A stretch of DNA of 58,251 nucleotides, the filler included, from Nemertoderma westbladi (lineage: Eukaryota; Animalia; Xenacoelomorpha), in the NCBI GenBank assembly GCA_032718475.1. It is 3 parts of 3 records of this genome, joined end to end, with 100 filler letters (N's around TTAATTAATTAA, not from the genome) between each part and the next. Parts side by side here need not be neighbours in the genome. Positions count along the whole stretch, not along the records: positions 1 to 19,565 come from JAUCBJ010007202.1; 2 more parts are not named here. One strand, given 5' to 3'. The notes beneath the pieces are model-generated. The model was not told the DNA's origin and did no database searches. It was given only the letters and a program-made list of their open reading frames with translations. The stretch's first letter is position 1; every line of letters begins with the position of its first letter. The translations under genes were made by a program, and so were the position numbers. Shown here piece after piece: positions 1-40,315 of this stretch.

Positions 1-183
1 AGCAAAGGCAAACGTATCAGTTATCCCACAAAAGCTTTTACAGATATAGGTAAGTTAACAAATACTAATGATAAGTTGATACTAATGATAAGGGTACAAT
101 ATAATAGAAAGGGAAACACATAAGTATGATTAATGACATTCAGATGTAAATAAAGTTGTTAACATTTGTTAACCTACCTATAT

Positions 184-219
184 CTGATGAAGCACCGCCA
201 GTCGGTACGAAATATATTA
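184..219 (+). ncRNA. Candidate degenerate minimal hammerhead ribozyme (Penelope pLTR-like remnant)
   Basis: CTGATGA (184-190), then A and a stem II GCACCG-ccagt-CGGTAC (one mismatch), then GAAA (209-212) overlapping palindromic ATATAT. Stem I is only ~3 bp. Confidence 0.35.
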
Positions 220-368
220 TAATACTGTTATAATCTCGCAACAAATTTAATTATATTTAGTTTAAATAATGTCGGAAAAATAAAATCGTTCCATCTATGA
301 AATGTGCCGATTTGTATTTCTCTGGCCTCTGTTTGGTAAATAAATTCTGTATTATCTATACAATTGAC

Positions 369-440
369 GCAATTTTGTCGACAGGCCGGCACAGCATCCT
401 TAAAAATGCAGCTGCAATGCAGCATGCCGATACTAGTAGT
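369..440 (+). mobile_element. Short structured dispersed element 3' end (copy 1), ending CTAG(TAG)n
   Basis: Near-identical to 9798-9888 (+) and 15162-15263 (-): GCAATTTTGT..CGGCACAGCAT.CTTAAAAATGCAGCTGCAATGCAGCATGCCGAT.CTAGTAGT. Confidence 0.75.
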
Positions 441-3400
441 TCTCCACTCCTACTACCCCTTTCTACACTCACACTACCCCTTTCTTCGCCCCTACTACCC
501 CTTTCTACACTTACACTACCCCTATATTCACTCCTACTACCCCTTTCTACACCCACACTACCCCTTTCTAAACTCACACTACCCCTTTCTTCACCCCTAC
601 TACCCCTTTCTTCACTCCTACTACCCCTTTCTTCACCCCTACTACCCCTTTCTTCACTCCTACTACCCCTATATTCACTACTACTACCCCTTTCTACACT
701 CACACTACCCCTTTCTACACTCACACTACCCCTTTCTTCGCCCCTACTACCCCTTTCTACACTTACACTACCCCTTTCTCCACTCCTACTACCCCTTTCT
801 ACACTCCCACTACCCCTTTCTTCACTCCCACTACCCCTATATTCACTCCTACTACCCCTTCCTTCACTCCCACTACCCCTATATTCACTCCTACTACCCC
901 TTTCTACACTCACACTACCCCTTTCTACACTCACACTACCCCTTTCTACACTCACACTACCCCTTTCTTCACCCCTACTACCCATTTCTTCACTCCTACT
1001 ACCCCTTTCTTCACCCCTACTACCCCTATATTCACTCCTACTACCCCTTTCTACACTCACACTACCCCTATATTCACTCCTACTACCCCTTTCTTCACTC
1101 CTACTACCCCTTTCTTCACTCCAAATACCCATTTCTCCACTCCCACTACCCCTATATTCACTCCTACTACCCCTTTCTACACTCCCACTACCCCTATATT
1201 CACTCCTACTACCCCTTCCTTCACTCCCACTACCCCTATATTCACTCCTACTACCCCTTTCTTCACTCCTACTACCCCTTTCTTCACTCCAAATACCCAT
1301 TTCTCCACTCCCACTACCCCTATATTCACTCCTACTACCCCTTTCTACACTCCCACTACCCCTATATTCACTCCTACTACCCCTTTCTACACTCACACTA
1401 CCCCTTTCTTCACCCCTACTACCCCTTTCTTCACTCCTACTACCCCTTTCTTCACCCCTACTACCCCTTTCTTCACCCCTACTACCCCTTTCTTCACTCC
1501 TACTACCCCTTCCTTCACTCCCACTACCCCTATATTCACTCCTACTACCCCTTTCTACACTCACACTACCCCTTTCTACACTCACACTACCCCTTTCTTC
1601 ACCCCTACTACCCCTTTCTTCACTCCTACTACCCCTTTCTTCACCCCTACTACCCCTTTCTTCACTCCTACTACCCCTTCCTTCACTCCCACTACCCCTA
1701 TATTCACTCCTACTACCCCTTTCTACACTCACACTACCCCTATATTCACCCCTACTACCCCTTTCTTCACCCCTACTACCCCTTTCTTCACTCCTACTAC
1801 CCCTTTCTTCACCCCTACTACCCCTTTCTTCACTCCTACTACCCCTTCCTTCACTCCCACTACCCCTATATTCACTCCTGCTACCCCTTTCTACACTCAC
1901 ACTACCCCTTTCTTCACCCCTACTACCCCTTTCTTCACTCCTACTACCCCTTCCTTCACTCCCACTACCCCTATATTCACTCCTACTACCCCTTTCTACA
2001 CTCACACTACGCCTTTCTTCGCCCCTACTACCCCTTTCTACACTTACACTACCCCTTTCTCCACTCCTACTACCCCTTTCTACACTCCCACTACCCCTTT
2101 CTTCACTCCCACTACCCCTATATTCACTCCTACTACAGCTTCCTTCACTCCCACTACCCCTATATTCACTCCTACTACCCCTTTCTACACTCACACTACC
2201 CCTTTCTTCACCCCTACTACCCATTTCTTCACTCCTACTACCCCTTTCTTCACCCCTACTACCCCTATATTCACTCCTACTACCCCTTTCTACACTCACA
2301 CTACCCCTATATTCACTCCTACTACCCCTTTCTTCACTCCTACTACCCCTTTCTTCACTCCAAATACCCATTTCTCCACTCCCACTACCCCTATATTCAC
2401 TCCTACTACCCCTTTCTACACTCCCACTACCCCTATATTCACTCCTACTACCCCTTCCTTCACTCCCACTACCCCTATATTCACTCCTACTACCCCTTTC
2501 TTCACTCCTACTACCCCTTTCTTCACTCCAAATACCCATTTCTCCACTCCCACTACCCCTATATTCACTCCTACTACCCCTTTCTACACTCCCACTACCC
2601 CTATATTCACTCCTACTACCCCTTTCTACACTCACACTACCCCTTTCTTCACCCCTACTACCCCTTTCTTCACTCCTACTACCCCTTTCTTCACCCCTAC
2701 TACCCCTTTCTTCACCCCTACTACCCCTTTCTTCACTCCTACTACCCCTTCCTTCACTCCCACTACCCCTATATTCACTCCTACTACCCCTTTCTACACT
2801 CACACTACCCCTTTCTACACTCACACTACCCCTTTCTTCACCCCTACTACCCCTTTCTTCACTCCTACTACCCCTTTCTTCACCCCTACTACCCCTTTCT
2901 TCACTCCTACTACCCCTTCCTTCACTCCCACTACCCCTATATTCACTCCTACTACCCCTTTCTACACTCACACTACCCCTATATTCACCCCTACTACCCC
3001 TTTCTTCACCCCTACTACCCCTTTCTTCACTCCTACTACCCCTTTCTTCACCCCTACTACCCCTTTCTTCACTCCTACTACCCCTTCCTTCACTCCCACT
3101 ACCCCTATATTCACTCCTGCTACCCCTTTCTACACTCACACTACCCCTTTCTTCACCCCTACTACCCCTTTCTTCACTCCTACTACCCCTTCCTTCACTC
3201 CCACTACCCCTATATTCACTCCTACTACCCCTTTCTACACTCACACTACGCCTTTCTTCGCCCCTACTACCCCTTTCTACACTTACACTACCCCTTTCTC
3301 CACTCCTACTACCCCTTTCTACACTCCCACTACCCCTTTCTTCACTCCCACTACCCCTATATTCACTCCTACTACAGCTTCCTTCACTCCCACTACCCCT

Positions 3401-4956
3401 ATATTCACTCCTACTACCCCTTTCTACACTCCCACTACCCCTATATTCACTCCTACTACCCCTTCCTTCACTCCCACTACCCCTATATTCACTCCTACTA
3501 CCCCTTTCTTCACTCCTACTACCCCTTTCTTCACTCCAAATACCCATTTCTCCACTCCCACTACCCCTATATTCACTCCTACTACCCCTTTCTACACTCC
3601 CACTACCCCTATATTCACTCCTACTACCCCTTTCTTCACTCCTACTACCCCTTTCTTCACTCCAAATACCCATTTCTCCACTCCCACTACCCCTATATTC
3701 ACTCCTACTACCCCTTCCTTCACTCCCACTACCCCTATATTCACTCCTACTACCCCTTTCTTCACTCCTACTACCCCTTTCTTCACTCCAAATACCCATT
3801 TCTCCACTCCCACTACCCCTATATTCACTCCTACTACCCCTTTCTACACTCCCACTACCCCTATATTCACTCCTACTACCCCTTCCTTCACTCCCACTAC
3901 CCCTATATTCACTCCTACTACCCCTTTCTTCACTCCCACTACCCCTATATTCACTCCTACTACCCCCTTCTTCACTCCCACTACCCCTATATTCACTCCT
4001 ACTACCCCTATATTCACTCCTACTACCCCTTTCATCACTCCCACTACCCCTATATTCACTCCTACTACCCCTTTCTTCACTCCTACTACCCCTTTCTTCA
4101 CTCCTACTACCCCTTTCTTCACTCCTACTACCCCTTTCTTCACTCCTACTACCCCTTTCTACACTCAGACTACCCCTTTCTACACTCACACTACCCCTTT
4201 ATTCACCCCTACTACCCCTTTCTTCACTCCTACTACCCCTTTCTTCACCCCTACTACCCCTTTCTTCACTCCTACTACCCCTTTCTTCACTCCAAATACC
4301 CATTTCTCCACTCCTACTACCCCTTTCTACACTCACACTACCCCCTTCCCCACTCCTACTACCCCTTTCTACACTCACACTACCCCTTTCTTCACCCCTA
4401 CTACCCCTTTCTTCACTCCCACTACCCCTTTCGTCACTCCCACTACCCCTATATTCACTCCTACTACCCCTTTCTTCACTCCCACTACCCCTATATTCAC
4501 CCCTACTACCCCTTTCTTCACTCCTACTACCCCTTTCTTCACTCCAAATACCCATTTCTCCACTCCCACTACCCCTATATTCACTCCTACTACCCCTTCC
4601 TTCACTCCCACTACCCCTATATTCACTCCTACTACCCCTTTCTACACTCACACTACCCCTTTCTACACTCACACTACCCCTTTCTTCACTCCTACTACCC
4701 CTTTCTTCACCCCTACTACCCCTTTCTTCACTCCTACTACCCCTTTCTTCACTCCAAATACCCATTTCTCCACTCCTACTACCCCTTTCTACACTCACAC
4801 TACCCCCTTCTCCACTCCTACTACCCCTTTCTACACTCACACTACCCCTTTCTTCACCCCTACTACGCCTTTCTTCACTCCCACTACCCCTATATTCACT
4901 CCTACTACCCCTTTCTTCACTCCTACTACCCCTTTCTTCCCTCCAAATACCCATTT
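441..4956. repeat. 21-bp minisatellite (~215 units, consensus CTACTACCCCTTTCTTCACTC) with a 1239-bp higher-order duplication
   Basis: Visible tandem array with 7-aa periodicity in every open frame. Rare variants recur 1239 bp apart (G at 1880/3119 and 2011/3250; AG at 2137/3376). Confidence 0.97.
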
Positions 4957-5021
4957 CAAAGGCCGCCAAATCTTGGCTTTCCAACGATATAAAGGCCGCC
5001 AAATCTTGGCTAGTCGTAGGG

Positions 5022-5318
5022 TCTTGGGCGGCTTTGCGACAGTTAGGCCTCACTGACACCCATTGGGTGTCATATGACACCCTATTATCACCCATAGGGT
5101 GTCATTGGCGCCAGACTGTCTGGGTGACACCTCCCAATTAGACTAATTAGACCCTAATTGATAGGTGGCATCAATTAATTAGTAGAATTAAACCCTAATA
5201 GGTGTCTTACGACTCCTAATTAGGGTTTAATTGATTATCCTAATTAATCAGACTGATTAGCGCCCTGACACACAATGGGTCATCAGTGTTGTCCAACTGT
5301 CGCAAAGCCGGCGCAAGA
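5022..5318. mobile_element. Foldback/MITE-like element with ~25-bp imperfect terminal inverted repeats
   Basis: TCTTGGGCGGCTTTGCGACAGTTAGG at 5022 versus CCAACTGTCGCAAAGCCGGCGCAAGA ending 5318. Inner IR: CACTGACACCCATTG / CAATGGGTCATCAGTG. Confidence 0.55.
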
Positions 5319-5679
5319 GGGTGTCATAAGTGACACCGCAGCTCTTTTATTTATTAAATACTTATTTATTTGTATTTAATTTTAATTAATTATTTGTATT
5401 TATTTAATTATACTTTATTTTAGATTTACCAATAATTAGTTTTATATATTGGTTTCTATATGACCTCATTGACTTTCATCTCGTTATACTTAGACATAGG
5501 GTATACAGCTCCCTTACTGGTAACTAATTACTCTTATCTATATCCAGACAGCTTTATCGTTGACCTTTGACCCCCAATTAGCTTTAACCAAGCAACAGCT
5601 TATTAATAATAGTTGTATCCAAGCGCCCCGCCCCCCTCTCGTGACACCTCTGATTACTAATTACTCTTACCTATATCCA

Positions 5680-6150
5680 GCCGTCTGCAGTTCCATAGTC
5701 TGCCGCTAGAGTGCGTATGATCTGAAAATTAACATCTTCTCTAACTTTGTTATTTTCATTCCGAATAGGTTTAAACTCGGTAGGCCTCTACTACGGCATA
5801 GGCCATATCTTTTGCGGAGTCATAGAGTAGTCTGAAGTTCCCCTGTCTGCCGCTAGAGGGCGTATTATTTGAAAATTAACATCTTCTCTAGCTTTGTTAT
5901 AGCTTAGCTCTAGCTTAGCTAGCAGTCCGCAAAACTATGAAGTTATATTGCTTAAGAGTTCTGAGGGGCAAGCCACGAAGCAAGATGTTTGAGACTTATT
6001 TAGATATATTATTACCTAATTTTGACCCCTCCAGTCGGTATCTATTACAATATGCGCTATATATTTTGCAGAATCACAGAGTATTCTGAAGTTCCCAGTC
6101 TGCCGCTAGAGGGCGAAATGTCTCAAAGTGAAAACCATATGGTAGCCATG
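5680..6150 (+). repeat. Fragment of the GCCGCTAGAGGGC ~150-bp-unit repeat family (same family as 39043-40315)
   Basis: Three degenerate units with GTCTGCCGCTAGAG(G/T)GCG near 5700, 5847 and 6100, in the same flanking context as the 39-40 kb units. Confidence 0.7.
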
Positions 6151-6202
6151 AATTGGTCACTAGGCAATAATACTGCATTTTGCAACGTTAGGCCTATTGC
6201 TG

Positions 6203-6294
6203 ACCGAACGAAAACTGCCCTGGTTCATGCAGGGATCGAACCCATGACATACGGGAGATGTGAATTCAACGCAACCACTACACCAAGGTGGAAC
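6203..6294 (-). mobile_element. tRNA-derived SINE head (truncated copy)
   Basis: Minus strand has A-box TGGTGTAGTGG and B-box GGTTCGATCC. Closely matches 18934-19026. Confidence 0.8.
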
Positions 6295-6321
6295 AGTAAG
6301 CTTCGAATTTGTTCGCTGACG

Positions 6322-6836
6322 TGAGGCACTGAGGCATAGACTATGCCTCGCCTCACTGAGGTATAGACTATGCCTCACTGAGGCATAGACTATGCCTCAC
6401 TGAGGCACTGAGACATAGACTATGCCTCACTGAGGCACTGAGGCATAGACTATGACTCACTGAGGCATAGACTATGCCTCACTGAGGCACTGATGCATAG
6501 ACTATGCCTCACTGGGGCATATACTATGCCTCACTGAGGCACTGAGGCATAGACTATGCCTCAGTGAGGCATAGACTATGCCTCAGTGAGGCATAGACTA
6601 TGCCTCAGTGAGGCATAGACTATGCCTCACTGAGGCACTGATGCATAGACTATGCCTCACTGGGGCACTGAGGCATAGACTATGACTCACTGAGGCATAG
6701 ACTATGACTCACTGAGGCATAGACTATGCCTCACTGAGACATAGACTATGCTTCACTGAGGCATAGACTATGCCTCACTGAGGCATAGACTATGCCTCAC
6801 TGAGGCACTGCGGCATAGACTATGACTCACTGAGGC
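6322..6836. repeat. Palindromic 22-bp minisatellite (TGAGGCATAG-A-CTATGCCTCA-C) with 8-bp ACTGAGGC inserts
   Basis: Read directly; each unit is a 10-bp inverted repeat around a single base. Confidence 0.95.
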
Positions 6837-7600
6837 TGTGACGGGATCAAGGGATCCCGACCGGTTGTCAGACTACGCGTCACCGTGGTAATGAAACAAA
6901 AGAGTTTGTTGTTATCTCTCGACACTTGGTAGTTAATTTCGATAAAATGAATTGATAATATATGTAATAGCACAGTTGATAGGTCGACAATAGCACTATA
7001 CAGGTAGGTAGGATATGTAATATGTAATGACGGTGACGGTAAAAGATGTCACCAGTCTGCACTCAAACTAATGACTGGAATAACTGAACTGGTATGAATA
7101 CATTGATAATATATCTAATGAAACATATCATATCAACATATAATAAACATATCAGTGGATGCTTTCCCCCGCTCCTATTGGCTGATAACCTACTTCATGC
7201 CTCTCACCTCTGTGGGAGTGCTTCCCCCCCTCCCCCTGCTGGTTCCGTTGGTTATTTTCCCTCTCGAGGTGGTTTGACCTCTAACCTCCCTTTGTGTGGC
7301 TTTTGGGGTGTGTGTTATCCCCGTTATTGGGTGTGATACGAGATTGGTTGTTATCAATCTCGTATCTCCAATATTGCTGAAAAAGGCGCCACTTACCAAC
7401 TTTATGGGGGTAATGAGGCGGAATTGAATCCGCTCACCACCCCCCCCATGCTATCCTCCCGGTGAGAAGATAGCATCACCTATGAGTGCGCTTCAATTCC
7501 GCTGGAACCCGATCTACTATCGGGTGTGGGCTGGAGTTCTTTTACTTGGAGTCGGCTTTCCAGGCCGTTCCCTCTGGGTATGATATTACTACCCCCTCTT

Positions 7601-7656
7601 GGTGCAACCCCAACCTATGTTGCACCAAGACATCTGGCGTCTCGGTTCGAGACAAT
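7601..7656 (+). repeat. 56-bp exact direct repeat, copy A (copy B at 9889-9944)
   Basis: GGTGCAACCCCAACCTATGTTGCACCAAGACATCTGGCGTCTCGGTTCGAGACAAT occurs identically at both sites. Confidence 0.9.
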
Positions 7657-7659
7657 ATA

Positions 7660-8960
7660 TCAATCATCCCAGGCATGGAAATCGATCAATCTGCTTACTG
7701 GGCGGAAAAGCCAACCAACCACCAAGGTTAAGGCTGAATCACCAGCCGATCGCCTCAATGGTTGGAAAGCCCACTTGAAAAGCTCCTCAATAATGACAGG
7801 GTATTGCCTGATAACTTTATAGAAGTATAAGTGTCTGAGTCTGTACTCCCAGATATTCCCATTGGCAATATCTCCTTTGCAGAAGTGAAGGCTGCTGCAA
7901 AGAGCATTAAGACCAATCGTGCCAGTGGAGTAGATGGTGTTCCCCCTGAGGTCTTTAAAATACCTGAGTGTTTAAAGCTCATCTATCCCATCATAGTAGA
8001 CATGTACCGAACAACAAGAGTCCCACAAGAAATGAAAACAAATAAGTTGGTGCCAGTGCCCAAGAAGGGCAACCTAACACTCTATGGTTCTTTTCGGGGA
8101 ATCTCATTGATCTCGATTGCTGCAAAGCTATACAATAGAATTCTATTAAATCGCATCAGGGATCCCATTGAGAGACTGCTCCGTGGAAATCAGAATGGGT
8201 TCCGTAAAGGTCGTGGGACCATGGAGCCCATTTTGGCACTTAGAAGGATAATTGAAGAATTATCAAAAAAGAAAGACAGACTGTTATATTTGTTGACTTC
8301 TTCAAGGCCTTTGATTCAGTCTCTCGCTCACGTATGTTCAGCATACTTTCATTATATAGGATTCCTGATGAAATTATTGCAGCAATCAGATCAGTATACG
8401 AGGGTTCGACAACATTTGTGTCTACTGTTGACGGTGACACAGAACCATTTTAAGTGTTATGGGGCGTCCTCCAAGGAGACACACTTGCACCATTCTTGTT
8501 CATTATTGTGGTTGACTATGTTCTACGCATGTCCTTAGATCATTATAATGATGATGGGGTGATGATAACTCCACCTACTGGCTCCAAAAGTCGAGGAAAT
8601 CCTGCCAAGAACCTAACTGATCTAGACTTTGCTGATGACTTAGGAGTACTCTCAGAATCACTAGAGGGAGCCCAATGGCTCCTCAGCTCATTATAACATG
8701 CTGCTTCTAGTGTTGGTATTTTTATTAACTCTAGAAAGACCAAAATTTTGACAGTTAACTTTGAAAGTCCGCAGCAATTCTCTGATCAGATGAGCATAAG
8801 CTCAAAGGTTAGTATGCTTGAGCATGTGGATTCGGAAGACAGGTGAGGCGAATACGTAAGGGAAAGGTATGGGCAGCCTTGAATAGGCTTTCCAGGATTT
8901 GGAAGTCACCAAGAGAAACTTAAGGTCCGATTATTTAGAGCAGCAGTAGTTCCAGTACTC
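7660..8960 (+). pseudogene. Degenerate RTE-like non-LTR retrotransposon RT fragment
   Basis: Frameshifted pieces carry RASGVDGVP, FRGISLISIAAKLYNRILLNRI, NQNGFRKGR, FVDF.KAFDS, GVLQGDTLAPFLF and LTDLDFADDL. Confidence 0.9.
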
Positions 8961-9069
8961 TACTTTATTTATTTAAAATTTTGTAAAATCATTTAGCGAA
9001 AATTAAATACTATCAATTGACATTGCTATATAATGCATAGAGATGAAAGATGTTTGGTTTGTAATAAAG

Positions 9070-9797
9070 AAGTAGGGAGATCGACGTAGACAGGGAGACC
9101 AACGTAGAGAAGTTCGCCTACCAGCGACTCCACAGACCGCGGAGATCGCTTGGGACGAAAGACGAGGTGGGACGGGAGACATTGGTACTCGGCTGCGACT
9201 ACTGTGGGAGACAGACCCATCGGGAAAGCAGCTGCCTATACCGGTTCCAACAGGGAACCTTTTGTCTCTACTGCAGAGAACCAAGTCACAGGATGGGGGC
9301 GTGTCCACGGTTGCATAACCGATGTCCAAAGTGCCACTTTCGGGGACACTACGGACGCGAGTGCGACTGGATGAACGACGAGGAGAAGTTCAAAAGATTC
9401 GAGGAGTGGGCCGACGTCGGGGCCATGACGCGCTAGCGCATGAAGGCCCAGGAGTTCAAGTGGGGTTTCTTCCTTATCAATCAGGAGACTCACATAGAAA
9501 TCATAAAGCGGAGGCTACCGTTTACCTACCAAGAGGTAGCAACGGCGGCGTCGTACGCTGGAGTGATGAACACGCAAAGGTATCTGGACAGGTGGACGCC
9601 AGAGAACCGAAGGGAGTTTAGGGATTTCTTGGCTGAGCACGTACCAAAGGCAATGAAAATGATCCTATGGGACGCCACTAGAGGGAGACAACCGGGCCAT
9701 TCTGAGGGGCCACCGGCGAGGCGATATCGGGCACTAATAACACCAGCGCCCAAGGAGCCAACGACCGGGATCAGCAAGGAAGTGGCGGCGAAGGTCC
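9070..9797 (+). pseudogene. Inverted, diverged partial copy of the LTR-element cargo ORF (triple CCHC zinc knuckle and C-terminal region)
   Basis: ORFs 9167-9436 and 9440-9802 align with 10495-11598(-): CDYCGRQTHRESSC, CLYCREPSHRMGAC, CPKCHFRGHYGREC, KRRLPFTYQEV. In-frame stop at 9434-9436. Confidence 0.9.
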
Positions 9798-9888
9798 GAT
9801 AGGGAGTTGTGGCGGTGCAATTTTGTTGACAAGCCGGCACAGCATTCTTAAAAATGCAGCTGCAATGCAGCATGCCGATCCTAGTAGT
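9798..9888 (+). mobile_element. Short structured dispersed element (copy 2)
   Basis: GATAGGGAGTTGTGGCGGTGCAATTTTG...GATCCTAGTAGT; matches copies 1 and 3. Confidence 0.8.
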
Positions 9889-9944
9889 GGTGCAACCCCA
9901 ACCTATGTTGCACCAAGACATCTGGCGTCTCGGTTCGAGACAAT

Positions 9945-10478
9945 TGTGGACTCCTCTCACACAATTTTAAATCTCCACTCCACTCTAAACTGACTCTAAC
10001 TTCTCTCTACTTTCACTCTAACTCCACTCCACTTTCGGACCTCTTTGTCCCTCACTCTGCCTCTTACTCCTCCCCCCCCCCCCCCCCCCCCACATCTGAA
10101 TCGCATCCGTACTCTCTCCACACGCCTCAACACCACCTCTCACTATCTCCCCCTATACTCAACCCTTACTCACTTTACCCCATTCACTCCTGACGAGCCT
10201 CACCCTCCCCTTCCATGCCGTCGCACTTAAGAAGTGTCAAGTGTGTAGTGCCACGTCTAGTCTCCCGTCCTCCTGTTATAGTCGATTGGTCCCCAGTCCC
10301 AGTAGCTAGTTGGAAAAAGGTTACATGACTATACTACTTACTTTGATTATATTGGGTATTGATAATATGATTACATTCTATTGATTACTACATACGTGCA
10401 TACTAATTGCACTTTTATTAAATTTGCACTTAGAAGTTCGTATTACTTCGCATGTGGTGCCTCCCAGGCATCCCCACA
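9945..10478 (-). mobile_element. 3' LTR of BEL/Pao element 1 (534 bp)
   Basis: On the minus strand it starts TGTGG (10478) and ends CCACA (9945), a 5-bp terminal inverted repeat, and follows a polypurine tract directly. The 5' LTR is not present to confirm it. Confidence 0.75.
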
Positions 10479-10490
10479 TATCCCCCTCCA
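10479..10490 (-). other. Polypurine tract (PPT)
   Basis: Minus strand TGGAGGGGGATA immediately before the LTR's TGT; the cargo ORF stop (10495-10497) lies just upstream. Confidence 0.7.
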
Positions 10491-10494
10491 AGTT

Positions 10495-13096
10495 CTAGTT
10501 CGCTCCTCCTGTCTTTGGGAACCATCTCAGTTCCTTCCCTCTGTCGGCGTCCTGTCTCGGTCGCTTCCTGGTTGTCGCCGCTCCCTTGCTCTTTGCCTCC
10601 TTAAGGTTCCTCCTTAAGGTTACTTCCCTACTGATTCCCGTCGTCGATTCCTTGGGCGCTGGTGTTATTAGCTCATGGTATCGCTTCGCAGGTGGCCCCT
10701 CCGAATGCCCCTGCTGCTTCCCCCTAGTGGCGTCCCATAGGATCACCTTCATGGCCCGCGGCACATGCTCCGCCAGGAAATCTCTGAACTCTCCCCGGTT
10801 CTCTGGCGCCCATCTGTCTAAATACCTCTGTGTATTCATCACTCCCGCATACGATGCCACCGTTGATACTTCTTGATAAGTAAACGGAAGCCTCCGTTTG
10901 ATGATTTCCAGGTGGGCCTCCCGGTTAATATTAAAGAAACCCCACAGGAATTTCTGAGCCTTCATCCGCTGCCGCGTCATGACGCTGACATCGGCCCACT
11001 CCTCGAAAATCTTAAACTTCTCCTCGTCGTCCATCCAGTCGCACTGGCGTCCGTAGTGCCCCCAGAAGTTGCACTTAGAACACCGGTTGTGCAACCGTGG
11101 ACACGCCCCCATCCTATGACTCGACTCGCGGCAGTAGAGGCAGCTCGTCCCCTTCTGGAATCGATACAAGCAGCTCCTTTCCTGGTGAGTAAGCCTCCCG
11201 CAGTAATTGCAGCCGAGTACCAACGCGTCCAGCCCCAAGTCGTCCTTCGCCCCAAGCGATCTCCTCGGTCTATGGAGCCGCAGGTAAGCAAACTTCTGGA
11301 CGTTAACGTCTCTGTCCATGTCTATGTCCTCGTCTCGCCTGGGCATCGTCTCTCCAAATACTACCCGTGGTGCCGTTCCCGGTTGCTCGCCCAAACTGAT
11401 GATGCTCCCCGCAAAATCCATCGCCGGGTCCTCATGCACCCAGGCCCACTTGCCGGGTTTATCCCAGAAGGCCCTTGCCCCGCTGGCCGTCACCACTCTC
11501 CCGCCAACCCAGTCCGTGTCTGAGTGGCCGATTCTCCTGATGGGCGGCATCCCTCCAAACTCGTCGTCATCCTCATCCTCCACTGGGAGTGGCTCCAAAC
11601 CCGGTATCCCGGTAGACCCACTGTGTCCCTTCCCACCTTGGCTCTCGCCCGTGACTTTCCATCCTTACAGTTCCCATGGCCTTCTCTTCGCGAAATCGCC
11701 CTCGGCGCCCGCTGGCATGGGCGTCGCCTGCAATCCCAATGTCGACTGTTTCGGTGATCCTTCCGTCCACCCCAACTCTCGCCCCAGAGACTCACCCGAG
11801 CTCCCTGATGTCCATTGTAAATCGTTCAAGGCCTGGGCCTCGAACCCGTAGCCCTCTCCTCTAGCTTCCGCCTCTCTTTCATCTGCCTCCCTCCTTTCTC
11901 GTCTAGCGATTTCTTCCAATTGCTTCTCCTCTTGTCTATCCGCCTCTAGCTTCTCCCACCTCTGATATGGTGTATCCACCTCCCTGTCTACTAGATATCG
12001 GCAGTTGTAGTATACCGACTCACCTTTCAGCCCCGGGTGGTCTGCCAGACCCTCAAAGGCCACGTTGAAGGCTCTTCTGTAGTTCAGGGGTGATCCAGAT
12101 AGCAGAAACGCCATTGGCTCTCTTCCGATAACCACGGCCATGAATAGGTTTAGTAAACCTATCATTATCCAATCCTCCTGCAGGATATATCGCTTCTGAT
12201 ATATCTTTATCGCTCCTCTCCGGAATTGATACACCTCCTGTTTCCCCGGCCTCGCTCCCCACTTCAGCGAGTTCGCCAACTCCGCTCCGTACTCCTCCCT
12301 GAATTTACCCCAGTCCATTGGCTTGTGGCAGACGAGCCCCATTAGCTGCCCCATCGCCACCGCTCCACAATGTCCTGTGTTCTCTGCTAGTCCCAACCCG
12401 GCTGGCCCTGTCATAGCCATGTAGACCGTTTGCATGTCCAGGAGGTTGGGGGTCTCCGGACCGATGATCCTCTCCGCATCGTCGCGGATCGCCGATCCCA
12501 CCTTTATCGTTGACTTCTCTCTTACTACGTTCTGCACCGCCCTTGGCAACCGGTTCAACTTTGGCCCGTTCTTCTTCCCATACGTTCCCAGATCGAACAG
12601 AAATATGTCCCCATTTGGCGCGGCCAAATGCAGAAGTATGGTTCTGGCCAACCCCGCCGACCCTCTCCTCGAACCCTCGTCGTCTTCCACGGTCCCTTTG
12701 TCATCTAGGACCATGTATCCTCCCCTGCTAACGGACTCTACGAACCTCTTCCAGTCCTTTCTCGGTGGTTCCCTCGGATACTTGTGTATCCCAAACTTTG
12801 CCTCGTCTCCCTACCACATAGTGGAAATGCTCGAGGATCGCATTGTCTAGCAACGGCGTCCCGTAGGTCCCGACCAGCCGCCTCTCGTGCACCTCCCTGA
12901 AATAGTCCTGCAGCGCTCGCACCTTGTGACCCTTCTCTAACCGCTCGTAGTATCCCCTCGTCTTCTCCTCCGGATGCCTCTCGGTGAAATCTACTAGTAT
13001 CTCCTTTCCACCCATTTCCGCCTTTCTCTTTCTAACAAGTTTCTCCGCCATTTCGAACGCTCCCGATCGCTCACCTACAAGGTGGTGCCTTTCCAA
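10495..13096 (-). pseudogene. Extra ORF3 of BEL/Pao element 1: DEDDy (WRN/EXD2/Mut-7-like) 3'-5' exonuclease, charged linker, three CCHC zinc knuckles; ~870 codons with one frameshift and one stop
   Basis: ORFs 11665-12714 and 10495-11598 share a frame and are split only by TAA at 11665-11667. That frame stays open to ~12810, overlapping ORF 12728-13096. Motifs: YMVLDDKG (ExoI-like), LLHLAAPNGDIFLFDL, LPRAVQNVVREKSTIKVGSAIRDD (ExoII-like), QKRYILQED (ExoIII-like), and three CX2CX4HX4C. Confidence 0.75.
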
Positions 13097-13524
13097 GGCT
13101 CAATATAGGTGAGTGATGTAGTTAGGATGGTCTGTACGGTCCGATAATGGCCTATCTCTCTCAGAATGCTAGGTTATGTGTTATATTTACCTATTTTTAC
13201 CCATTAAAGTACCAAATTTCCTAAATTCCCTAAATCTGTCAGTTACTTTTAATATCTTCTAGAATATTTTACCTACTGTTGCTATAATTTGTCGAATTTT
13301 GATTTTTAACATTAATTTTAATTCCATAACTGTGCTATTAATACTTATAATGGATTATTTATTTTAATAACCCCTATGGTTTGTATACAGGATGGACTAG
13401 CTACTCCTTACTGTGCTAGTCTGCACCAGGTAACCTCCTGGCCCTGTATCAAACATTCTGACATGTCTCAGGCGGCCTACACGGTCTGTCCTGCTGTACC
13501 CACGTGCCCCCCTCTCACTTCTCA

Positions 13525-14050
13525 CTACTAACCCTACTAACTCTCTAACTCTACTAACTCTTACTAACACTCTAACTAACTCCTACTAACTCTTACTAAA
13601 CTCTTACTAACTCTCTAACTAACTCCTACTAACTCTCACTAACGGTACTACACGTACCCTCTTACTACTAACTAACTCCTCTAACGGTACTACGTACCCT
13701 CTTACTACTAACTAACTCCTCTAACGGTACTATGTACCCTCTTACTACTAACTAACTCCACTAACGGTACTACACTACCCTCTTACTACTAACTAACTCC
13801 TCTAACGGTACTACATACCCTCTTACTACTAACTAACTCCACTAACGGTACTACGTACCCTCTTACTACTAACTCTTCTCCACTAATGGTACTACGTACC
13901 CTCTTACTACTCTTACTAACTCTCTAATGGTACCACATACCCTCTTACTACTAACTCCTCTACTAACGGTACTACGTACCCTCTTACTACTAACTCCTCT
14001 AACGGTACTACGTACCCTCTTACTACTCTTACTAACACTCTAACTAACTT
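13525..14050. repeat. 40-bp tandem repeat (CTAACGGTACTACGTACCCTCTTACTACTAACTAACTCCT) inside BEL/Pao element 1
   Basis: Units start at 13681, 13721, 13761 and onward; degenerate CTAA-rich flanks. Confidence 0.9.
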
Positions 14051-14221
14051 CTATCTTCTATCTGCCTACTTACTTACTACTACGTACTATGTACTATTAC
14101 TTTCCTTTCTCTTACTCTCTTTCTATTATGTTATTATTTTTATTATTTTTATATTTTGTGTGGGAAGGGCGTCTCGCCCTCAATCCCACCCCCCTCAGTC
14201 CAACACTTGGACGACTAAACT

Positions 14222-17200
14222 CTATGGTGCCCCTTCTAGCAGGCAACACTTCCCTACAGCCCTCCTGTAGGTCTTCCTATCTATCGCTCCTATCTTACCC
14301 CCTATCCGCACTTCCACCGATCGGACTCTTCCGTCCTCGTCGGGGTAAGTGTCTACTACTCTTGCTAGCCTCCACTGATTGTTGATGATTGTGTCATCAG
14401 TGACGATCACTAAATTACCTTTCTTTAACTCTCTAGTGGTATTTCTCCACTTGTTCCTCCTATGTAGTGTGGGTAGGTATTCCTCGACCCACCTCCTCCA
14501 GTACTCTGCGCTTATCGCCTTAGCGACTTTCCAACTCTGTCGGGAGTGTATGTCATCTGGGTCTACACCCCGCATGTCGATAGTCGCCGGCCTTTCCATC
14601 AGGAAATGACTGGGTGTCAGCACATCTAGTGATTCTGGTTCATCATTTTCTGGGTATAGCGGTCTGCTATTGATGATACCCTCGCACTTAGCTAGCACCG
14701 TCCTTAGTATATCTTCTGTCACCATGTGGGTGTTCATCAACTTCGTCATCAGACGCTTGGAACTACCCACGAGTCTCTCGTCGCATCCTAAAGTATGCGG
14801 AGCATACAGCGTCCTCCTTTCCCACTTTACCTGTCGTCTCCTCATGGCTGCCCTGACTTCCTCTCCTTCCAGGATGTCCAAGGCCTCCGCCAGCTCGTTC
14901 CCCCCCCCCCCCCACAAAGTTGGTTCCATTGTCGGAATAGATTACTGCGATCGTCCCACCTTTGCGGTCTCTGAACCTCTCTAGGGCATTGATGAATGCT
15001 GATGCGGTTGCGTCTTGGGCGAGTTCTATTCCTACCGCCTCGTGTTGTTACATACAAAGATGATTCCGCAGCGCTTCTCCGTGTGTCACATCACCTTGAT
15101 CTTTATCGGCCAGAACATATCTACGCCGCAGTGCGTGAATGGTGGGTCATGCTGTCTCACCCTACTACTACTACTACTAGGATCGGCATGCTGCATTGCA
15201 GCTGCATTTTTAAGAATGCTGTGCTGGCTTGTCAACAAAATTGCACCGCCACAACTCCCTATCACCCCTGACATTTGCTAGATTTGCCAGTTTGGTTTCC
15301 TCTTGGCGTCCTTGCCAACTCCCTTGAGGAAATCCCCGAAGGCCCTCCAGGACGCTACCAACTTCTTAGTCTTGTACCAGCTTGAGCTGAGTAGCTTATC
15401 CGTCGGGTTGTCGCATGGTTCTTCTAATTTTGGTTGCACCCCTTTGATTTCCCTCACCATCTGACTATATATCTCTTCACCTTCTGAGTCTTCTCCCTCT
15501 TCCTCTGGTGCTACTTCCTCTGAGCTCAGGTCCACCTTCTTCATTGGTGGCCAGGCCGACCTATCGTTCAGGAACTGTGGCCCGTGCTGCCACAGCACTT
15601 CCTTCTTTAAGAAAGTGTGGCGTGTCACGCCCCTCGATAAAAAGTCTGCTGGGTTCTCGTCCATTGGGCAGTAGTGCCACCTTTCCAAGTCTGTCATCGC
15701 CCTTATTTCATCAACCCTATTTGCGACAAATATAGGGTATCTTGTGTTCTCATTGTGCAGCCAACCAAGCACTACCATGGAGTCCGTCCAGTAATGTGTT
15801 TCCACTATGTTGGGAATAGTGTCCATCAAGTAGGCTGTGGCCCTTACTCCTAATCTTGCAGCTGTCAACTCGAGTTTCGGGACCAATGCTGAATCTGGCG
15901 GTGTCGACTTTGCTTTGCTGAATGCAAGTCTGGGCTTATGAGCCCCCTCTCATTGTACTAGGTAAAGTGCCGCTCCGTATGCTTCCAATGATACATCGGA
16001 GAACATGTGTAGATCCAGATCCGTCATGTCCCCATCCGGGAAATACATGCGTGGCATGCTGTACATCCCCATCTGTTCTAAACTCTCCGTCCACTTACTC
16101 CACTGCTTGCTGATTTCTTCCGGGACCTCTGTATCCCATTCATCCTTTAACTTATATACTTTCTTAAGTATCTGTTTTCCCGTGACTAACAGTGGGGATG
16201 CTAGGCCTAGGGGATCGTATATCCTTGCTATGTATGATTTATAGCCCCTCTTTGTGTGGATGACGGCGCCCTCCTGGCTCAGTTGATACTTGAACTCGTC
16301 TGTCTCCTGGTTCCACACGATCCCCAGTGCCTTCTGCTGAGAATCTACTCTCTTGTTCGCCATGTCCTGTCCCTTGGCTGTTGTGGGGTTATCCATGGTC
16401 GACTCTGGCCGTCTGTCCTCTATGGCTTTTATAAACTCCTCTGAGCTGGATTGGAACTTGGTCAGGTTAAACCCGGATCCCTTCAGGATGTCGCAAACCT
16501 CACACCCTGTATCCATCCAGTATTTGGAGCTATACTTCCCCTCTTTCCCCTCTACTGTATCTCTTACAGCCACAGTCGTCGTAAATGAGGATGACTTGGC
16601 CCCCATGTTCTGCACCACCATCTTGTACATCGGTAGTATCGACGGTTCCTCGTCGCCGTTGTACCATAGGAAGCGCTGGCTTTCACTATCCTCCTCCGTC
16701 ACACGGACTTGGTTGAACATGCCTTCAATACCACAGGAGAAGGCGTGTCTCCCATTTCTGAATCTCAGTAGGACCTCAATTCCCGAGTTATAGATATTTG
16801 GGCCCTCCAGCAGATAGTCGTTTAGGTACTTGCCGTTGGTTTTAGCCAATGTGTCAACTACCATCCGCAATTTACCTTTCTTTGGATCTAGAGCCACGTG
16901 AAGTGGCAGGTAGTAGGTCCTGTCCGTGTTCGGTTCGTCGACCGGCAACGCCACGGCCCATCCTTTTTCGACATACTTCTTTATCGTCTTATGGATGTAC
17001 TCATCCTTCTCGGGGCTCCGTTTCAACGTTTGCTTCAGTTTACAAAGCCTCGTGAGTACCATTCCCTTGTTCTCCGGTAATTTTGGTTGTTTCCACACCA
17101 TGCCTATGGTGTAGTATCGCCCCTCGTCGCATCTCATCGATTCCTTCACACTTTGTATCGCTTGTTTATCCTCTACCGAGGTTCTGACCCCAGTCTCCTT

Positions 17201-17446
17201 TAGTCCCTCAAAGTCCTGTCTAAGCAGTCTCCTGAGCTGCTCCTCTGCTCCTTCATCTTCCATCTCCCTCATAGTTCCCGCAACAATGCACCCTGATGTC
17301 TCCGACAACCTAAACGGAATCTTGGTTTTAATTGGGCCGCTTAGCGCCCATCCAAATGGTGTTAAAATTGCCATCGGGTCACGCTGTCTGTCTTCGCCGA
17401 AGACCGCCCGCCACACATCGATGACAGATTCCACTCTTCCTTGCAT
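14222..17446 (-). pseudogene. BEL/Pao pol remnants (RT, RNase H, integrase) with deletions and stops
   Basis: TPFGWALSGP, YYLPLH, KLRMVVD, LNDYLLEGPN, IEGMFNQV, ARIYDPLG, LHMFSDVS, PKLELTAA, WTDSMVVLGW, FVANRV, NPADFLSRG, PPFTHCGVD, INSRPL, LTPSHFL, YWRRWVEEYLPTL. Confidence 0.95.
15162..15263 (-). mobile_element. Short structured dispersed element (copy 3) with (TAG)5 tail, at a deletion junction in pol
   Basis: Reverse complement of copy 2 with a longer TAG tail. Flanked by RNase H-region sequence on one side and the integrase RVRQHDPPFTHCGVD on the other. Confidence 0.8.
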
Positions 17447-19565
17447 ATTCTACCTCATCTTGTTTGGGCAACGCTTGCCAATATCTGCAGTTCAGGGTCT
17501 AATGAAGTGCGTTCGAATGCAATTGGAATTTGTTGTTTGGATTACAGCCCGTCCCTATACAGTGCGCCGCGTATCGCACTTACGTTTGTACCTAGTTCCC
17601 TACTATTCTTATTGTTTGGGTTCGGCCTACTGGGCGTGTTGGGGTTATGTTTGTTTGTGTTGTTATTTTGCCCCTGTCCGCTCCATGATGTGGCCCTACC
17701 CCGGCTACATGTGGACTAGCAGTCCCCTACATCACCGCATATGGCAGCAATTGTCTAAGCTTTGGCAATGCATTTGCCGTGTTGTGTTCTGGTTTCGGCC
17801 TGTTATATTCGGTCCTTGGCCCCTTTCCCAGACTATCCTCGCTATAGACTGGGTCCGTGATCAACTCGGCTTCGTAGTTGAGGAAGTTCGACATTTCCTC
17901 TAGGCCCGGTTCCGCACCCTTCTTCTCCCTGGTGGAGAAGGCAATCTTTCTCCATTTATTGCGCAGCCAAATCGGCAGACCCTGCGCTATCGTGGTGATA
18001 TTATTAGATGCGTTGAGTTAGTATGGCGCATCTAGTGTCTTCAACAAAATTAGCGCCTTCTCGACTTTGTTTGCAAACGTCTTTATGCTAACGGGGTTAT
18101 CCTGTAGGCCACCCGATGTTATACCCCTCAGGGTTTGCCGGATGATCTTGGCTGGGTGCCCGTATTCCCTGTCTAGGGCCCGCCATGGAGTCGTGAAGCC
18201 ACCCTCGATGCCCTGATACTGCCTCACGATGTCGAACGCTGGGCCACCTGTATATACCTGTAGATATTTTAGGCACTCCGCCTGCATCAGGTTCTTAGTA
18301 CAGATTCTCCCATTGGGTGCAGTCCGCCCGTCCGGCCTGCTGTTTGATATACCATTGGGGGTAACGGCCCCCTCCATATTTCCGTGTCCCAAGACCTGTT
18401 CTCGTCCAGGGGGTTTGATGTTCTTATTTCTGTTTGAGTATATTGTTGATATTGTAATGGGGGAATGTCACCCTGCCCCCCCCCACCGAAGGTATGTTTG
18501 GTACTGGGGTTGATGTTAATATATCGGGGCCCATACACCTATCCGCAATAACTCTCCCCTCCCCTGGATATATGTTATGTCCCTGCATGTTATAGTCATA
18601 CTGTTCTGCTGGTACCAGTATAGGCCTATCCACTTCTGGCCTACCTACCGGTATATACTCCGCGACTTCCGGGTTTAATCCCGTTGTCCACACTACTCTA
18701 TTGCCTACACTATCTCTCCCAGCATGGCCTATAGTATGTGCAGTAAAGTAAAAAAGTAAAGTAAATTTTCTTCGGCCGCTAGGCCAGGGATTACGCACAA
18801 AGTCTGACGACTTATTTCCAGTGCGGTCCCCCCAGAACTTTACTCTCCAGAGGAAACTCTAGTACTCATTTAGCTACCACTTAAGGATGCAAGGCAGAGA
18901 TGCACCCTGGCTGGTCCCTTTAAAGCATTCGTGCCGAAACGAAAACTGCCCTGGCCCATATGAGGATCGAACCCACGACCTACGGGAGATGTGAATTCAA
19001 TGCAACCACTACACCAAGGTGGAACCTTAAGTAAGGCCTACAGTATGTCCTGCAGTCTGTATGTGTCCCTCCGGACCAAAGTTTAACCTTCTCGAATAGT
19101 CCAAGAAGTCCTCCCCATGACTACCGTACCCTCGATCGGCAGCTATATCCCGTCGGGAAGTTTCTCTTTGATCCCCTCTCCTATTGTTGTCCTCGTACCG
19201 GTACGCCCTGTACCCCTCTCTCGGCGTATAGTACATCTCGCCAGGTTGCGTCTCTCCGGGGCGACGGCAATCTCCCGGAGTTCGACCCCACTGGCTCTCC
19301 AACTCCATCTCTACTACCGACGGCTCGATATCCGTCCTCGCTCTCCGGTCGCTTGTAACGACGCTTCTTCTATTCTCTTCTCTTCTTCTCTCTTCAGTGT
19401 AGCGTCCCCGTTCGTGAGATCTCTCATCAACCTCCTGGTTAAACTCCACTGTTCTTCTCCCCTCTTCTGACTGGGCTCGACGTCTCGTCGCTCGCCCGCT
19501 CGCGACGCTAACCTCTCTCTCTCTAGCCGGTCGCACGCCACCTGGGATATTCCTAAACCCCCTAT
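17447..19565 (-). pseudogene. BEL/Pao gag remnants of element 1 (5' end lost in the gap)
   Basis: LKYLQVYTGGPAFDIV...WRALDREYGHP matches the BEL gag motif in element 2 (LRYLITYVRGEPLDLI...WNTLERRYGQP). Interrupted by a SINE. Confidence 0.8.
18742..19026 (-). mobile_element. Full-length tRNA-derived SINE (~285 bp) inserted in gag
   Basis: A/B boxes at the 5' end and a (TTTAC)n-like tail. Probable TSD GGCCTA(T/C)AGTATGT at 18726-18739 and 19035-19048. The gag peptide HT(V/I)G is duplicated on both sides. Confidence 0.85.
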
Positions 19566-19665: not shown

Positions 19666-20948
19666 ATTAAAACTTGGTAATTAACGTAAATCCGTGTTTT
19701 ACACCCCTTCCCGGATCCAATAAAACTTGGTAATTAACTCGAATCCGCCTTTTACACCCCTTCCCGGATCCATTAAAACTTGGTAATTAACATGAATCCG
19801 CGATTTACACCCCTTCCCGGATCCAATAAAACTTGGTAATTAACTTGAATCCACGTTTTACACCTCTTCCCGGATCCATTAAAACTTTATAATTAACTTG
19901 AATCCGCGTTATACACCCCTTCCCGGATACAGTAACATCTGGTAATGAACATGGATCCGCCTTTTACACCACTTCCCGGATCCATTAAAACTTGGTAATT
20001 AACGTAAATCCGTGTTTTACACCCCTTTCCGGATCCAATAAAACTTGGTAATTAACTCGAATCCGCGTTTTACACCCCTTCCGAGATCCATTAAAATTTG
20101 TAATTAACGTAAATCCGTGTTTTACACCCCTTCCCGGATCCAATAAAACTTAGTAATTAACTTGAATCCACGTTTTACACCCCTTTCCGGATCCAATAAA
20201 ACTTGGTAATTAACTCGAATCCGCGTTTTACACCCCTTCCGAGATCCATTAAAATTTGTAATTAACGTAAATCCGTGTTTTACACCCCTTTCCGGATCCA
20301 ATAAAACTTGGTAATTAACTCGAATCCGCGTTTTACACCCCTTCCGAGATCCATTAAAATTTGTAATTAACGTAAATCCGTGTTTTACACCCCTTCCCGG
20401 ATCCAATAAAACTTGGTAATTAACTTTAATCCGCGTTTTACACCCCTTCCGAGATCCATTAAAATTTGTAATTAACGTAAATCCGTGTTTTACACCCCTT
20501 TCCGGATCCAATAAAACTTGGTAATTAACTCGAATCCGCGTTTTACACCCCTTCCGAGATCCATTAAAATTTGTAATTAACGTAAATCCGTGTTTTACAC
20601 CCCTTCCCGGATCCAATAAAACTTGGTAATTAACTTTAATCCGCGTTTTACACCCCTTCCCGGATCCAGTATCAGTTGGTAATTAACACGAATCCGCGTT
20701 TTACACCCCTTCCCGGATCCATTAAAACTTGGTAATTAACGTAAATCCGTGATTTACACTCCATCCCGGATTTACAAAATATAAGAATCCGCGTTTTTCA
20801 CTGCAATACGGATTGCTTATTTCAGAATCCGCATATTACACTCAGTTACGGATTGTATGTAAATCCGAATCCACCTTTTACACTCGCAAATCCGGGTCCT
20901 GATCCGTATCCGTATCCTGAATCCGGATCCGCGTTTTACACCTACCCC
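19666..20948. repeat. 53-bp tandem repeat (alternating ~105-106-bp dimer), decaying towards TTTTACACCTACCC; possibly a subterminal array of a long-TIR DNA transposon
   Basis: GGATCC at 19713, 19766 and onward, 53 bp apart; 35-aa repeat in ORF 20122-20616. Confidence 0.85.
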
Positions 20949-29760: not shown

Positions 29761-29878
29761 GATAGGATTTGAATTGGTACAGGTAGGGCTGTAAGGGTAG
29801 GTCTACCCTACCATATACGCGATAGAGATGACTCTCTGAGTACGGTACCCAATTCAACAACTGAATTCAACAACAGTG

Positions 29879-39000: not shown

Positions 39001-39042
39001 ATTGTAGCTACGCTTTTGTATGCCCTATGATCTGTGGGGCGA
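36039..39042 (-). pseudogene. BEL/Pao element 2 pol (protease, RT, RNase H; integrase core deleted in frame)
   Basis: ALLDDGSTGT, TPFGWTLVGP, CDIEQMFHQV, FYVDDG, ASIYDPLG, LHHFCDAS, IPRLELQSA; NPADIASHG is followed within a few residues by INDRPL. Confidence 0.93.
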
Positions 39043-40315
39043 GCCACGAAGTTGGCGGAGCCTTAGCGAATTGACACTGTTAGGGGGTGGGTCAATTTAT
39101 GCAAATAGTTGTCGTCGTCGTCGTCGTTGTCGTCGTCATCGTTGTCGTCGTCGTTGTCGTTACGATTTTGACATGCTAATAACTTTGTCGGATTTAAAGC
39201 TGCCAAGTTGAAAATTTGTAGGTATCAATATGAGCAAAAGTTGAGATTTTTGAGAGACTTTCAGACACCATCAGTGCAATCGTCTCCCGCTAGAGGGCCA
39301 CATGTCTAAACATTAAATGCCCTCCCATTTCTTTGCTTTTAATCCGTTTAAGCTGAAACTTGGCAGATATGTATTAGACCATTAGCTGTGACTTTCAAAG
39401 GAGGCGAATCCATCTGCAGTTCTCCAGTCTGCCGCTAGAGGGCCAAAGGTCTGAAAGTGAAATCGTTGTCGTCGTTACGATTTTGACATGCTAATAACTT
39501 TGTCGGATTTAAAGCTGCCAAGTTGAAAATTTGTAGGTATCAATATGAGCAAAAGTTGAGATTTTTGAGAGACTTTCAGACACCATCAGTGCAATGGTCT
39601 CCCGCTAGAGGGCCACATGTCTAAACATTAAATGGCCACCCATTTCTTTGCTTTTAATCCGTTTAAGCTGAAACTTGGGAAGTATGTACTAGACCATTAG
39701 CTGTAAATTTCAAAGGAGGCTAATCTGTCTGCAGTTCTCCAGTCTGCCGCTAGAGGGCGAAATGTCCCGAATGTGAAATTATTCTTCCATTTAGTTATTT
39801 ATGATCTGATCCACCTGAAACTTGTCATATATGTACTAGAAGACATCCTAAGTCTTTGTGTGGACAGTAATCGGTCCGGAGTTTTCGAGTCTGCCGCTAG
39901 AGGGCGAAATGTAGGAAAGTGATAACCTTCGCGAATTCCTTGATCTTAATCTATTTAAGCTGAATTTTGGAATATACAGTACCGGTATGTACTAGACCAC
40001 ATGCCTCGTCTTTGTGAGGAAGGTGATCGATCCATAGTTCTTTAATATGCCGCTAGAGGGCTAAATGTATGAAAGTGAAAACCTTCCAACATTTCGTTAT
40101 TTATGATCCGTCAATCGGAAACTTGGTAGATATGTAATAGACCATAGGCTGTGGCTTTGTAGGGAAACTAATCCTTCCTTCTTCAGTTACCCAGTCTCCC
40201 GCTAGAGGGTTAACGTTTTCCGGGAAAATCTTCTCCTATGTTTTTATAATCCTTTCGAGTTGATACTTAGCATTAACTCATTTCACGTGCTGCGCGAAGG
40301 CCCCACTTCGTGTAT
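39043..40315 (+). mobile_element. Helentron/DINE-like non-autonomous element inserted between gag and pol of element 2
   Basis: Subterminal IR CACGAAGT..GG..GCCTT (39045-39064) / AAGGCCCCACTTCGTG (40297-40312); (GTC)n microsatellite near the 5' end; seven ~150-bp units; 315-bp internal duplication. Confidence 0.7.

Follow-up and report, generated by a model that had tools for sequence, protein, structure and literature searches.

A third gene encoding an exonuclease-fold domain and zinc knuckles lies behind pol in BEL/Pao retrotransposons

The window analysed here is the whole stretch of 58,251 nt of DNA from Nemertoderma westbladi (assembly GCA_032718475.1), of which positions 1-19,565 correspond to JAUCBJ010007202.1. 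Its minus strand carries a BEL/Pao retrotransposon, a type of element that usually encodes gag-pol and occasionally env. A third reading frame, here called ORF3 (13099-10495, minus strand), is located between the end of the integrase and a polypurine tract (PPT) that is followed by a long terminal repeat (LTR). Read along the minus strand, and ending with one plus-strand feature, the locus contains the following.

18021-18467, minus strand: part of BEL/Pao gag (DUF1759; E = 6.5e-7).
15281-17449, minus strand: BEL/Pao pol, reverse transcriptase (RT) and Peptidase_A17/RNase H region, broken (E = 5e-27 and 1e-5).
14225-14941, minus strand: C-terminal part of the BEL/Pao integrase (DUF5641; E = 4e-26).
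13100-14221, minus strand: non-coding spacer that separates pol from ORF3 and contains a 40-bp tandem array (13628-14027).
12731-13099, minus strand: N-terminal piece of ORF3, with its first ATG at 13051, ending at a frameshift near 12810.
12010-12756, minus strand: DEDD-fold 3'-5' exonuclease domain of the EXD2/WRN/Nibbler type, predicted from a family HMM, hhalign, fold comparison and the ESM atlas.
11863-11970, minus strand: charged helical segment (predicted helix, residues 281-316).
11665-11667, minus strand: in-frame stop private to the window copy.
11560-11580, minus strand: acidic tract, assigned by sequence, in a low-confidence linker (pLDDT below 50 for residues 321-531).
10849-11214, minus strand: three CCHC knuckles, then a conserved helical motif of the type F..[WF]AD.G..T..R....GFF (pLDDT 74-87).
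10480-10489, minus strand: polypurine tract, assigned by sequence.
9945-10478, minus strand: 3' LTR of 534 bp, TGTGG..CCACA, with its partner LTR absent from the window.
9076-9783, plus strand: inverted partial second copy covering the zinc-knuckle half of ORF3, with 80% identity to the main copy.

The first-pass annotation had placed ORF3 inside the element, and its surroundings bear this out, with DUF5641, Peptidase_A17 (matched twice) and DUF1759 upstream on the same strand and the PPT and LTR downstream. The BEL/Pao Gag-Pol set of DUF1759, Peptidase_A17, RT and integrase with DUF5641 is present in the window and also in intact relatives, and the window element has a PPT and TG..CA LTR at its 3' end. 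The element is cut at the gap at 19566, which hides the 5' LTR. The outer edge of the 3' LTR coincides with the end of a 57-bp match to 7600-7656, and a small hairpin opens this LTR. In a correction to the earlier description, ORF3 is parted from pol by a 1.1-kb non-coding, tandem-repeat spacer, which shows no similarity to the 3' LTR. Directly after the pol stop (14221-14120, minus strand) is a G-rich hairpin and then an A-rich tract with AATAAA, a possible internal polyadenylation signal.

ORF3 is open on the minus strand at 13099-12731, 12810-11668 and 11664-10498. Its stop codon occupies 10495-10497 and the purine tract starts six bases on. Both lesions reported earlier were found, namely the frameshift near 12810 and the stop codon at 11665-11667. 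All the exonuclease-like motifs quoted in that description were recovered in the read-through translation (X at the stop), as were the three canonical CX2CX4HX4C knuckles (residues 534-590), the acidic tract and, as a helix predicted with pLDDT of about 80-93, the charged helical segment. The N-terminal piece has no significant match to the homologues described below, so it is assigned to ORF3 because it is adjacent and because host contigs cover 12731-13099.

Contigs from three host runs cover pol, spacer, ORF3 and LTR in many variant copies, with no listed contig spanning the whole stretch; their depth was not used as copy number. All host contigs at 11665-11667 carry another letter than the window stop, and contigs making up about 98% of the total depth differ from the window at its aberrant Exo I codon, indicating that the window defects are private decay. 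The window ORF3 is a broken, decayed copy of a third gene.

The remainder of the window is rich in repeats. A short repeat that ends in a (TAG)n tail and is present in very high copy number occurs at 9798-9891, 15170-15263 and 369-440, and one of its copies breaks pol at the site of the missing integrase zinc-finger region. A second BEL/Pao element (36042-43694, minus strand) appears in the RT tree as the sister of the first element, and a gap at 35938 hides its third-gene position. Other features are a long 21-bp tandem array (270-5141), a 53-bp array (19666-20771), a decayed LINE-type RT (7831-8535, plus strand), a carnitine acyltransferase in two pieces (27157-29802, minus strand), a Myb/SANT and DDE_Tnp_4 pair that is presumably Harbinger-like (48598-51060), and another RT frame (52712-55069, minus strand).

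The exonuclease part of the window ORF3 escapes detection by Pfam, NCBIfam and single-sequence PDB searches. Against PF01612 (DNA_pol_A_exo1; gathering cut-off 23.6 bits) the window gives no match, the best homologue reaches 23.3 bits and none of 20 locus domains passes. Word-index protein searches found no match even with an alignment and are judged insensitive here. A HMMER search of 1.84 billion representatives found 34 proteins, 18 of which are long enough for both domains; these 18 and the window protein were put into one alignment. The resulting whole-protein profile ranks TbRND and EXD2 first among PDB entries, followed by WRN and Egalitarian, and its match to TbRND extends over both domains (E = 1.5e-12). 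An exonuclease-only profile from 20 loci, with the window left out, matches EXD2 (E = 1.4e-13) and does not find TbRND at E = 0.1, while a zinc-only profile finds nothing in the PDB at E = 0.01. Since the single-domain profiles miss TbRND, the shared layout may be convergent. The window domain is linked to the 20 locus domains by an hhalign comparison in which they are independent of the window (probability 96.6, E = 6e-10), and to the family HMM with E = 8.5e-40, a profile of which the window row is itself part. The ESM atlas places it with DNA_pol_A_exo1 clusters at 0.93 and with unnamed basidiomycete clusters at 0.94-0.95.

An AlphaFold model built from the 19-row alignment has a mean pLDDT of 54.7, with the exonuclease and zinc parts mostly at 65-90 and the linkers low. 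Foldseek matches this model to EXD2 and TbRND. In VIA-align comparisons the predicted domain resembles Nibbler (Z = 11.4, r.m.s.d. 4.1, 184 aligned), WRN (Z = 11.1, r.m.s.d. 3.6, 161 aligned) and TbRND (Z = 10.3); these top scores are tied within about 1, and the top rows are all of DEDD type. The DnaQ/DEDD fold on which the first-pass annotation had staked its claim is thus found in the model, confirming, at the level of predicted structure, membership of the DEDD/DnaQ exonuclease superfamily with its RNase H-like DEDD fold.

A degenerate zinc-motif scan of metagenomes yielded at least 120 loci, 80 of them with flanks, and about 300 are estimated. A small number of related assemblies contributed many of these loci, and the counts therefore refer to element families rather than hosts. 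Homologues nearly always lie directly behind BEL pol, as membership of these elements would predict: same-strand BEL pol is upstream in 30 of the 34 listed loci with at least 4 kb of upstream sequence, and in 25 of the 28 with at least 6 kb. The four exceptions among the 34 are a chance match (L071), a locus whose upstream region is filled by its own long ORF (L005), a decayed fragment (L012) and a repeat-flanked derivative without pol (L022). The last of these is a unit of ~5.7 kb (about 5187-10931) that has the exonuclease and zinc parts and is interrupted by a stop, and it is likely to be a non-autonomous derivative. The placement of ORF3 between integrase and LTR is borne out by L023, in which pol, exonuclease and knuckles are flanked by two 95% identical LTRs accompanied by a TGG-type primer-binding site. 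Six contigs of 10-11 kb among the listed loci close on themselves, and all six upstream ORFs tested contain Peptidase_A17 and DUF5641. The exonuclease and then the zinc domain occur in one frame in 66 proteins, 46 of them from listed loci, separated by a linker of 28-428 residues. Variants include two loci in which the zinc domain has no detected exonuclease (L047 and L059) and a homologue with the zinc-knuckle domain twice (P0002).

No fused exonuclease or zinc domain was found in 120 database BEL polyproteins, a related-locus search with P0021 and P0015 as queries found none, and the zinc-motif scan of viral contigs gave no matches. The scan of prokaryote genomes gave 12 matches. Six have no exonuclease match and are judged to be chance. 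The other six (L123, L124, L127, L128, L130 and L132) are real copies on short contigs, one with a BEL integrase upstream, and are likely to be eukaryotic contamination of two bacterial metagenome bins. ORF3 belongs to a family of third genes that dozens of BEL/Pao elements carry between the integrase and the end repeat.

Codon comparisons indicate that the ORF3 gene is under purifying selection, with dN/dS ranging from 0.04 to 0.52 across domains and pairs. Values are 0.12-0.52 for the exonuclease (12 locus pairs, 11 measurable and one saturated), 0.04-0.38 for the zinc domain (11 locus pairs, 10 measurable and one saturated) and 0.114 between the two window copies over 241 codons. dS is lower in ORF3 than in RT, which higher GC3 accounts for in eight of nine loci; we ascribe to the same bias the long antisense frames, which are mostly in the mirror phase. 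That dN/dS is far below 1, and that the gene holds the same position in 30 of 34 listed loci, argues against ORF3 being a functionless captured host gene or a separate element nested beside pol in the window. Such a reading would suit the broken window copy, the 5' LTR that is not visible and the absence of pol from L012 and L022. However, no LTR was found between pol and ORF3 in the window and no named cellular protein with the exonuclease and knuckle layout was among the 34 HMMER matches, leaving this reading largely refuted and very improbable.

Distances between exonuclease domains track those between RTs (Mantel r = 0.951, n = 21 elements, 0 of 2,000 permutations). The ORF3 and RT trees agree, as would be expected if ORF3 is a part coupled to replication, although co-descent is also expected from simple linkage in one RNA genome. 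The window pol is at most 34% identical to database proteins and falls outside 23 metagenome elements, beside the second BEL element of the window and fish, echinoderm, cnidarian and Schistosoma proteins, these references being without clade labels. A single origin of the ORF3-bearing elements is neither demonstrated nor rejected: we count two changes on the tree with an AU P value of 0.176, both window rows being long branches and the ORF3 status of the comparison rows being unscored.

The alignment of 81 exonuclease domains, near-duplicates included, contains 69 rows that are complete at the five catalytic columns. Four catalytic acids are kept in 41 of these (33 strict DEDD; the Exo III tyrosine in 36 of the 41), and D, E and D are invariant in the 20-row active set, suggesting that catalysis is selected in most lineages. 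The DEDDy assignment made earlier thus holds for the fold and for the motifs of the family (D-x-E in Exo I, D in Exo II and YxxxD in Exo III) and fails for the full catalytic set of the window copy, which is without the Exo I glutamate and has YxxxE in Exo III, a glutamate common to five homologues. The set is also missing from one supported clade of 17 rows, whose homology is clear (hhalign 99.8) and which is still conserved, with dN/dS of 0.12-0.34 in four pairs. A whole clade thus keeps the gene without the catalytic residues, suggesting that binding, and not cutting alone, is under selection. The DEDD domains of Egalitarian and EXD1 are inactive. These RNA-binding domains of host proteins are among the fold matches and provide a model for the inactive clade; the inactivity of EXD1 is stated in the available text of PMC5408684.

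The conserved inactive clade and the presence of Egalitarian among the matches could mean that the ORF3 product acts chiefly as an adaptor for RNA transport or for targeting, in the manner of Egalitarian, or as a tether linked to integrase, and can dispense with nuclease activity. Readthrough of the kind considered below would join the module to the integrase C terminus, and basic NLS-like motifs are in excess (found in 54 of 66 proteins, where shuffling predicts 27.7), as would suit either role. But the four acids are kept in most complete rows, with catalysis apparently selected in those lineages, and Egalitarian ranks no higher than active nucleases. We consider this reading distinctly unlikely.

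At 10 of 37 pol/ORF3 junctions, ORF3 is in frame behind a single stop, which is always TGA and is followed by C in nine; the other 27 lack this direct in-frame continuation past the pol stop. Of the 16 inactive-clade junctions, 12 have TGA-C, compared with two of the 21 others (L029 and L076), both of which are catalytically intact and in frame. In four TGA-C elements (L002, L033, L037 and L062) the frame is not open into the domain. Downstream of the stop, the inactive clade shows a bulged hairpin composed of a 9-bp stem, a 7-nt bulge containing TCGG and a 5-bp upper stem, beginning about 9 nt after TGA-C (L007:1234-1289, L034, L037, L065, L066, L068 and others). A pattern derived from this hairpin has 11 matches in 525 kb, every one at a pol end. 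Covariation, assessed on six of 12 aligned sequences picked for equal length, changes 10 of 14 pairs on both sides (reached by none of 500 shuffles), and slid controls fall to 36-48% paired. Because the structure was read from the same related sequences, the covariation counts as support and not as a probability. TGA-C and the hairpin together are a candidate new readthrough element. The in-frame stop and conserved 3' structure are found in relatives only: in the window element the pol stop is TAG, followed by the 1.1-kb spacer, with no readthrough junction. At the junctions of L006 and L043 a start codon lies two bases behind, or overlaps, the pol stop, an arrangement that would allow termination-reinitiation.

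The first-pass annotation had offered two roles for an element-encoded RNA-binding exonuclease, the processing of the element's own RNA or cDNA and the trimming or counteraction of piRNA or siRNA. The evidence leans to the former. With roughly even confidence, we propose that this conserved BEL/Pao third gene encodes an RNA-binding, 3'-end-trimming factor of the element's own ribonucleoprotein particle. In this proposal a flexible linker joins the EXD2/WRN-type exonuclease domain to three zinc knuckles, which would hold single-stranded RNA and pass its 3' end to the nuclease, as in the trypanosome RNase D. The substrate would be the element's genomic RNA, its primer or its cDNA ends. Elements with TGA-C and the hairpin would add ORF3 to Gag-Pol at a low ratio by readthrough and so package it, the window lineage would make ORF3 from a separate message, and in the inactive clade the binding role alone would remain. 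Because ORF3 tracks pol and, in some elements, is arranged for fusion to Gag-Pol, the substrate is most probably in the element's own particle; the profile that ranks TbRND (exonuclease and CCHC) and EXD2 first is consistent with RNA binding and trimming. Against this stand the window element and the four closed frames, neither of which fits readthrough, the precedent of Tca2, in which UGA and a predicted structure gave no readthrough in yeast according to the available text of PMC2194720, and the separate grouping of the window pol, which allows module exchange. Small-RNA trimmers and DNA exonucleases also have tied Z-scores, so RNA rather than DNA is a tentative choice of substrate.

In the foremost competing reading, ORF3 would instead be a suppressor of small-RNA silencing that trims or sequesters piRNAs, siRNAs or their precursors, with the inactive clade acting by binding alone, a role also raised for rotifer DEDDy ORFs in the available text of PMC5408684. 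The 27 junctions that are not in frame behind the pol stop are accessory-gene-like, and the NLS-like excess would fit this reading too. The structural matches include four small-RNA factors, Nibbler, EXD1, RICE1 and TbRND. However, the gene is under strong purifying selection and descends strictly together with RT, with no sign of an arms race or of free exchange, readthrough would yield little free protein, and mature piRNAs have a protected 3' end. We regard silencing suppression as unlikely. That ORF3 substitutes for env, whose position it occupies, is hardly credible given the nuclease fold and a hydrophobic stretch above threshold in only five of 66 proteins.

A bolder picture, which we put forward tentatively and with some doubt, has a deep BEL/Pao branch in which an EXD2-like nuclease, equipped with a zinc clamp for RNA, serves as third core enzyme. 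This enzyme would be packaged with Gag-Pol via an undescribed readthrough hairpin and would edit reverse-transcription intermediates or destroy host small RNAs, and one clade would have become a pseudo-nuclease along the path taken by host EXD1 and Egalitarian. The third gene was missed by Pfam and NCBIfam, is under selection across many divergent families and follows pol. It provides a large natural series of active and inactive forms with which to address the reason that LTR elements encode DEDD nucleases, left open by the rotifer report. It also offers a candidate recoding signal that can be tested by a simple reporter. Should the target be small RNA, an animal retrotransposon would here encode a counter-defence that works through a nuclease.

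What is new is a third gene of exonuclease and knuckles in BEL/Pao elements, together with a candidate recoding signal; DEDDy third ORFs as such are known from rotifers. The openly accessible literature searched contained no BEL/Pao exonuclease gene and none with knuckles, although Repbase entries, subscription papers and supplements may mention one. Juno and Vesta are Ty3/gypsy-like. The rotifer precedent cited in the first-pass annotation is real: an ORF for a DEDDy-type exonuclease follows pol in the LTR elements Juno and Vesta and in Athena/Terminon elements as well, its function left open (available text of PMC5408684, PMC6431247 and PMC6338049). The main text of PMC5408684, as far as available, mentions knuckles for gag and pol only, and BEL is absent from it. 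Compared by description only, the rotifer ORFs are low in copy and judged recent, whereas the BEL ORF3 is deep and pol-linked and has an inactive clade and a putative readthrough junction.

Among host proteins, EXD2 is closest by sequence and Nibbler (Mut-7) and WRN by predicted fold, but EXD2, WRN and Nibbler are host genes that are not mobile and are without this knuckle domain. TbRND (PDB 7C42/7C45) likewise has a DEDD exonuclease followed by CCHC knuckles, which bind the RNA body and are required for 3' trimming or cleavage (available text of PMC7797062). TbRND is a cellular protein that trims guide RNAs, and it has a short linker and four knuckles, whereas the BEL ORF3 has three knuckles with a conserved helical cap and a linker of widely varying length. 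For the junction, the available text of PMC2194720 describes suppression of the stop between pol and env in SIRE1, UGA-C in Sindbis virus, and a stop, spacer and structure in MuLV. The BEL junction resembles these in its in-frame stop between pol and a third gene, the C after UGA and a structure a few bases behind, and it differs in the bulged hairpin with an invariant TCGG bulge and in its nuclease-fold cargo.
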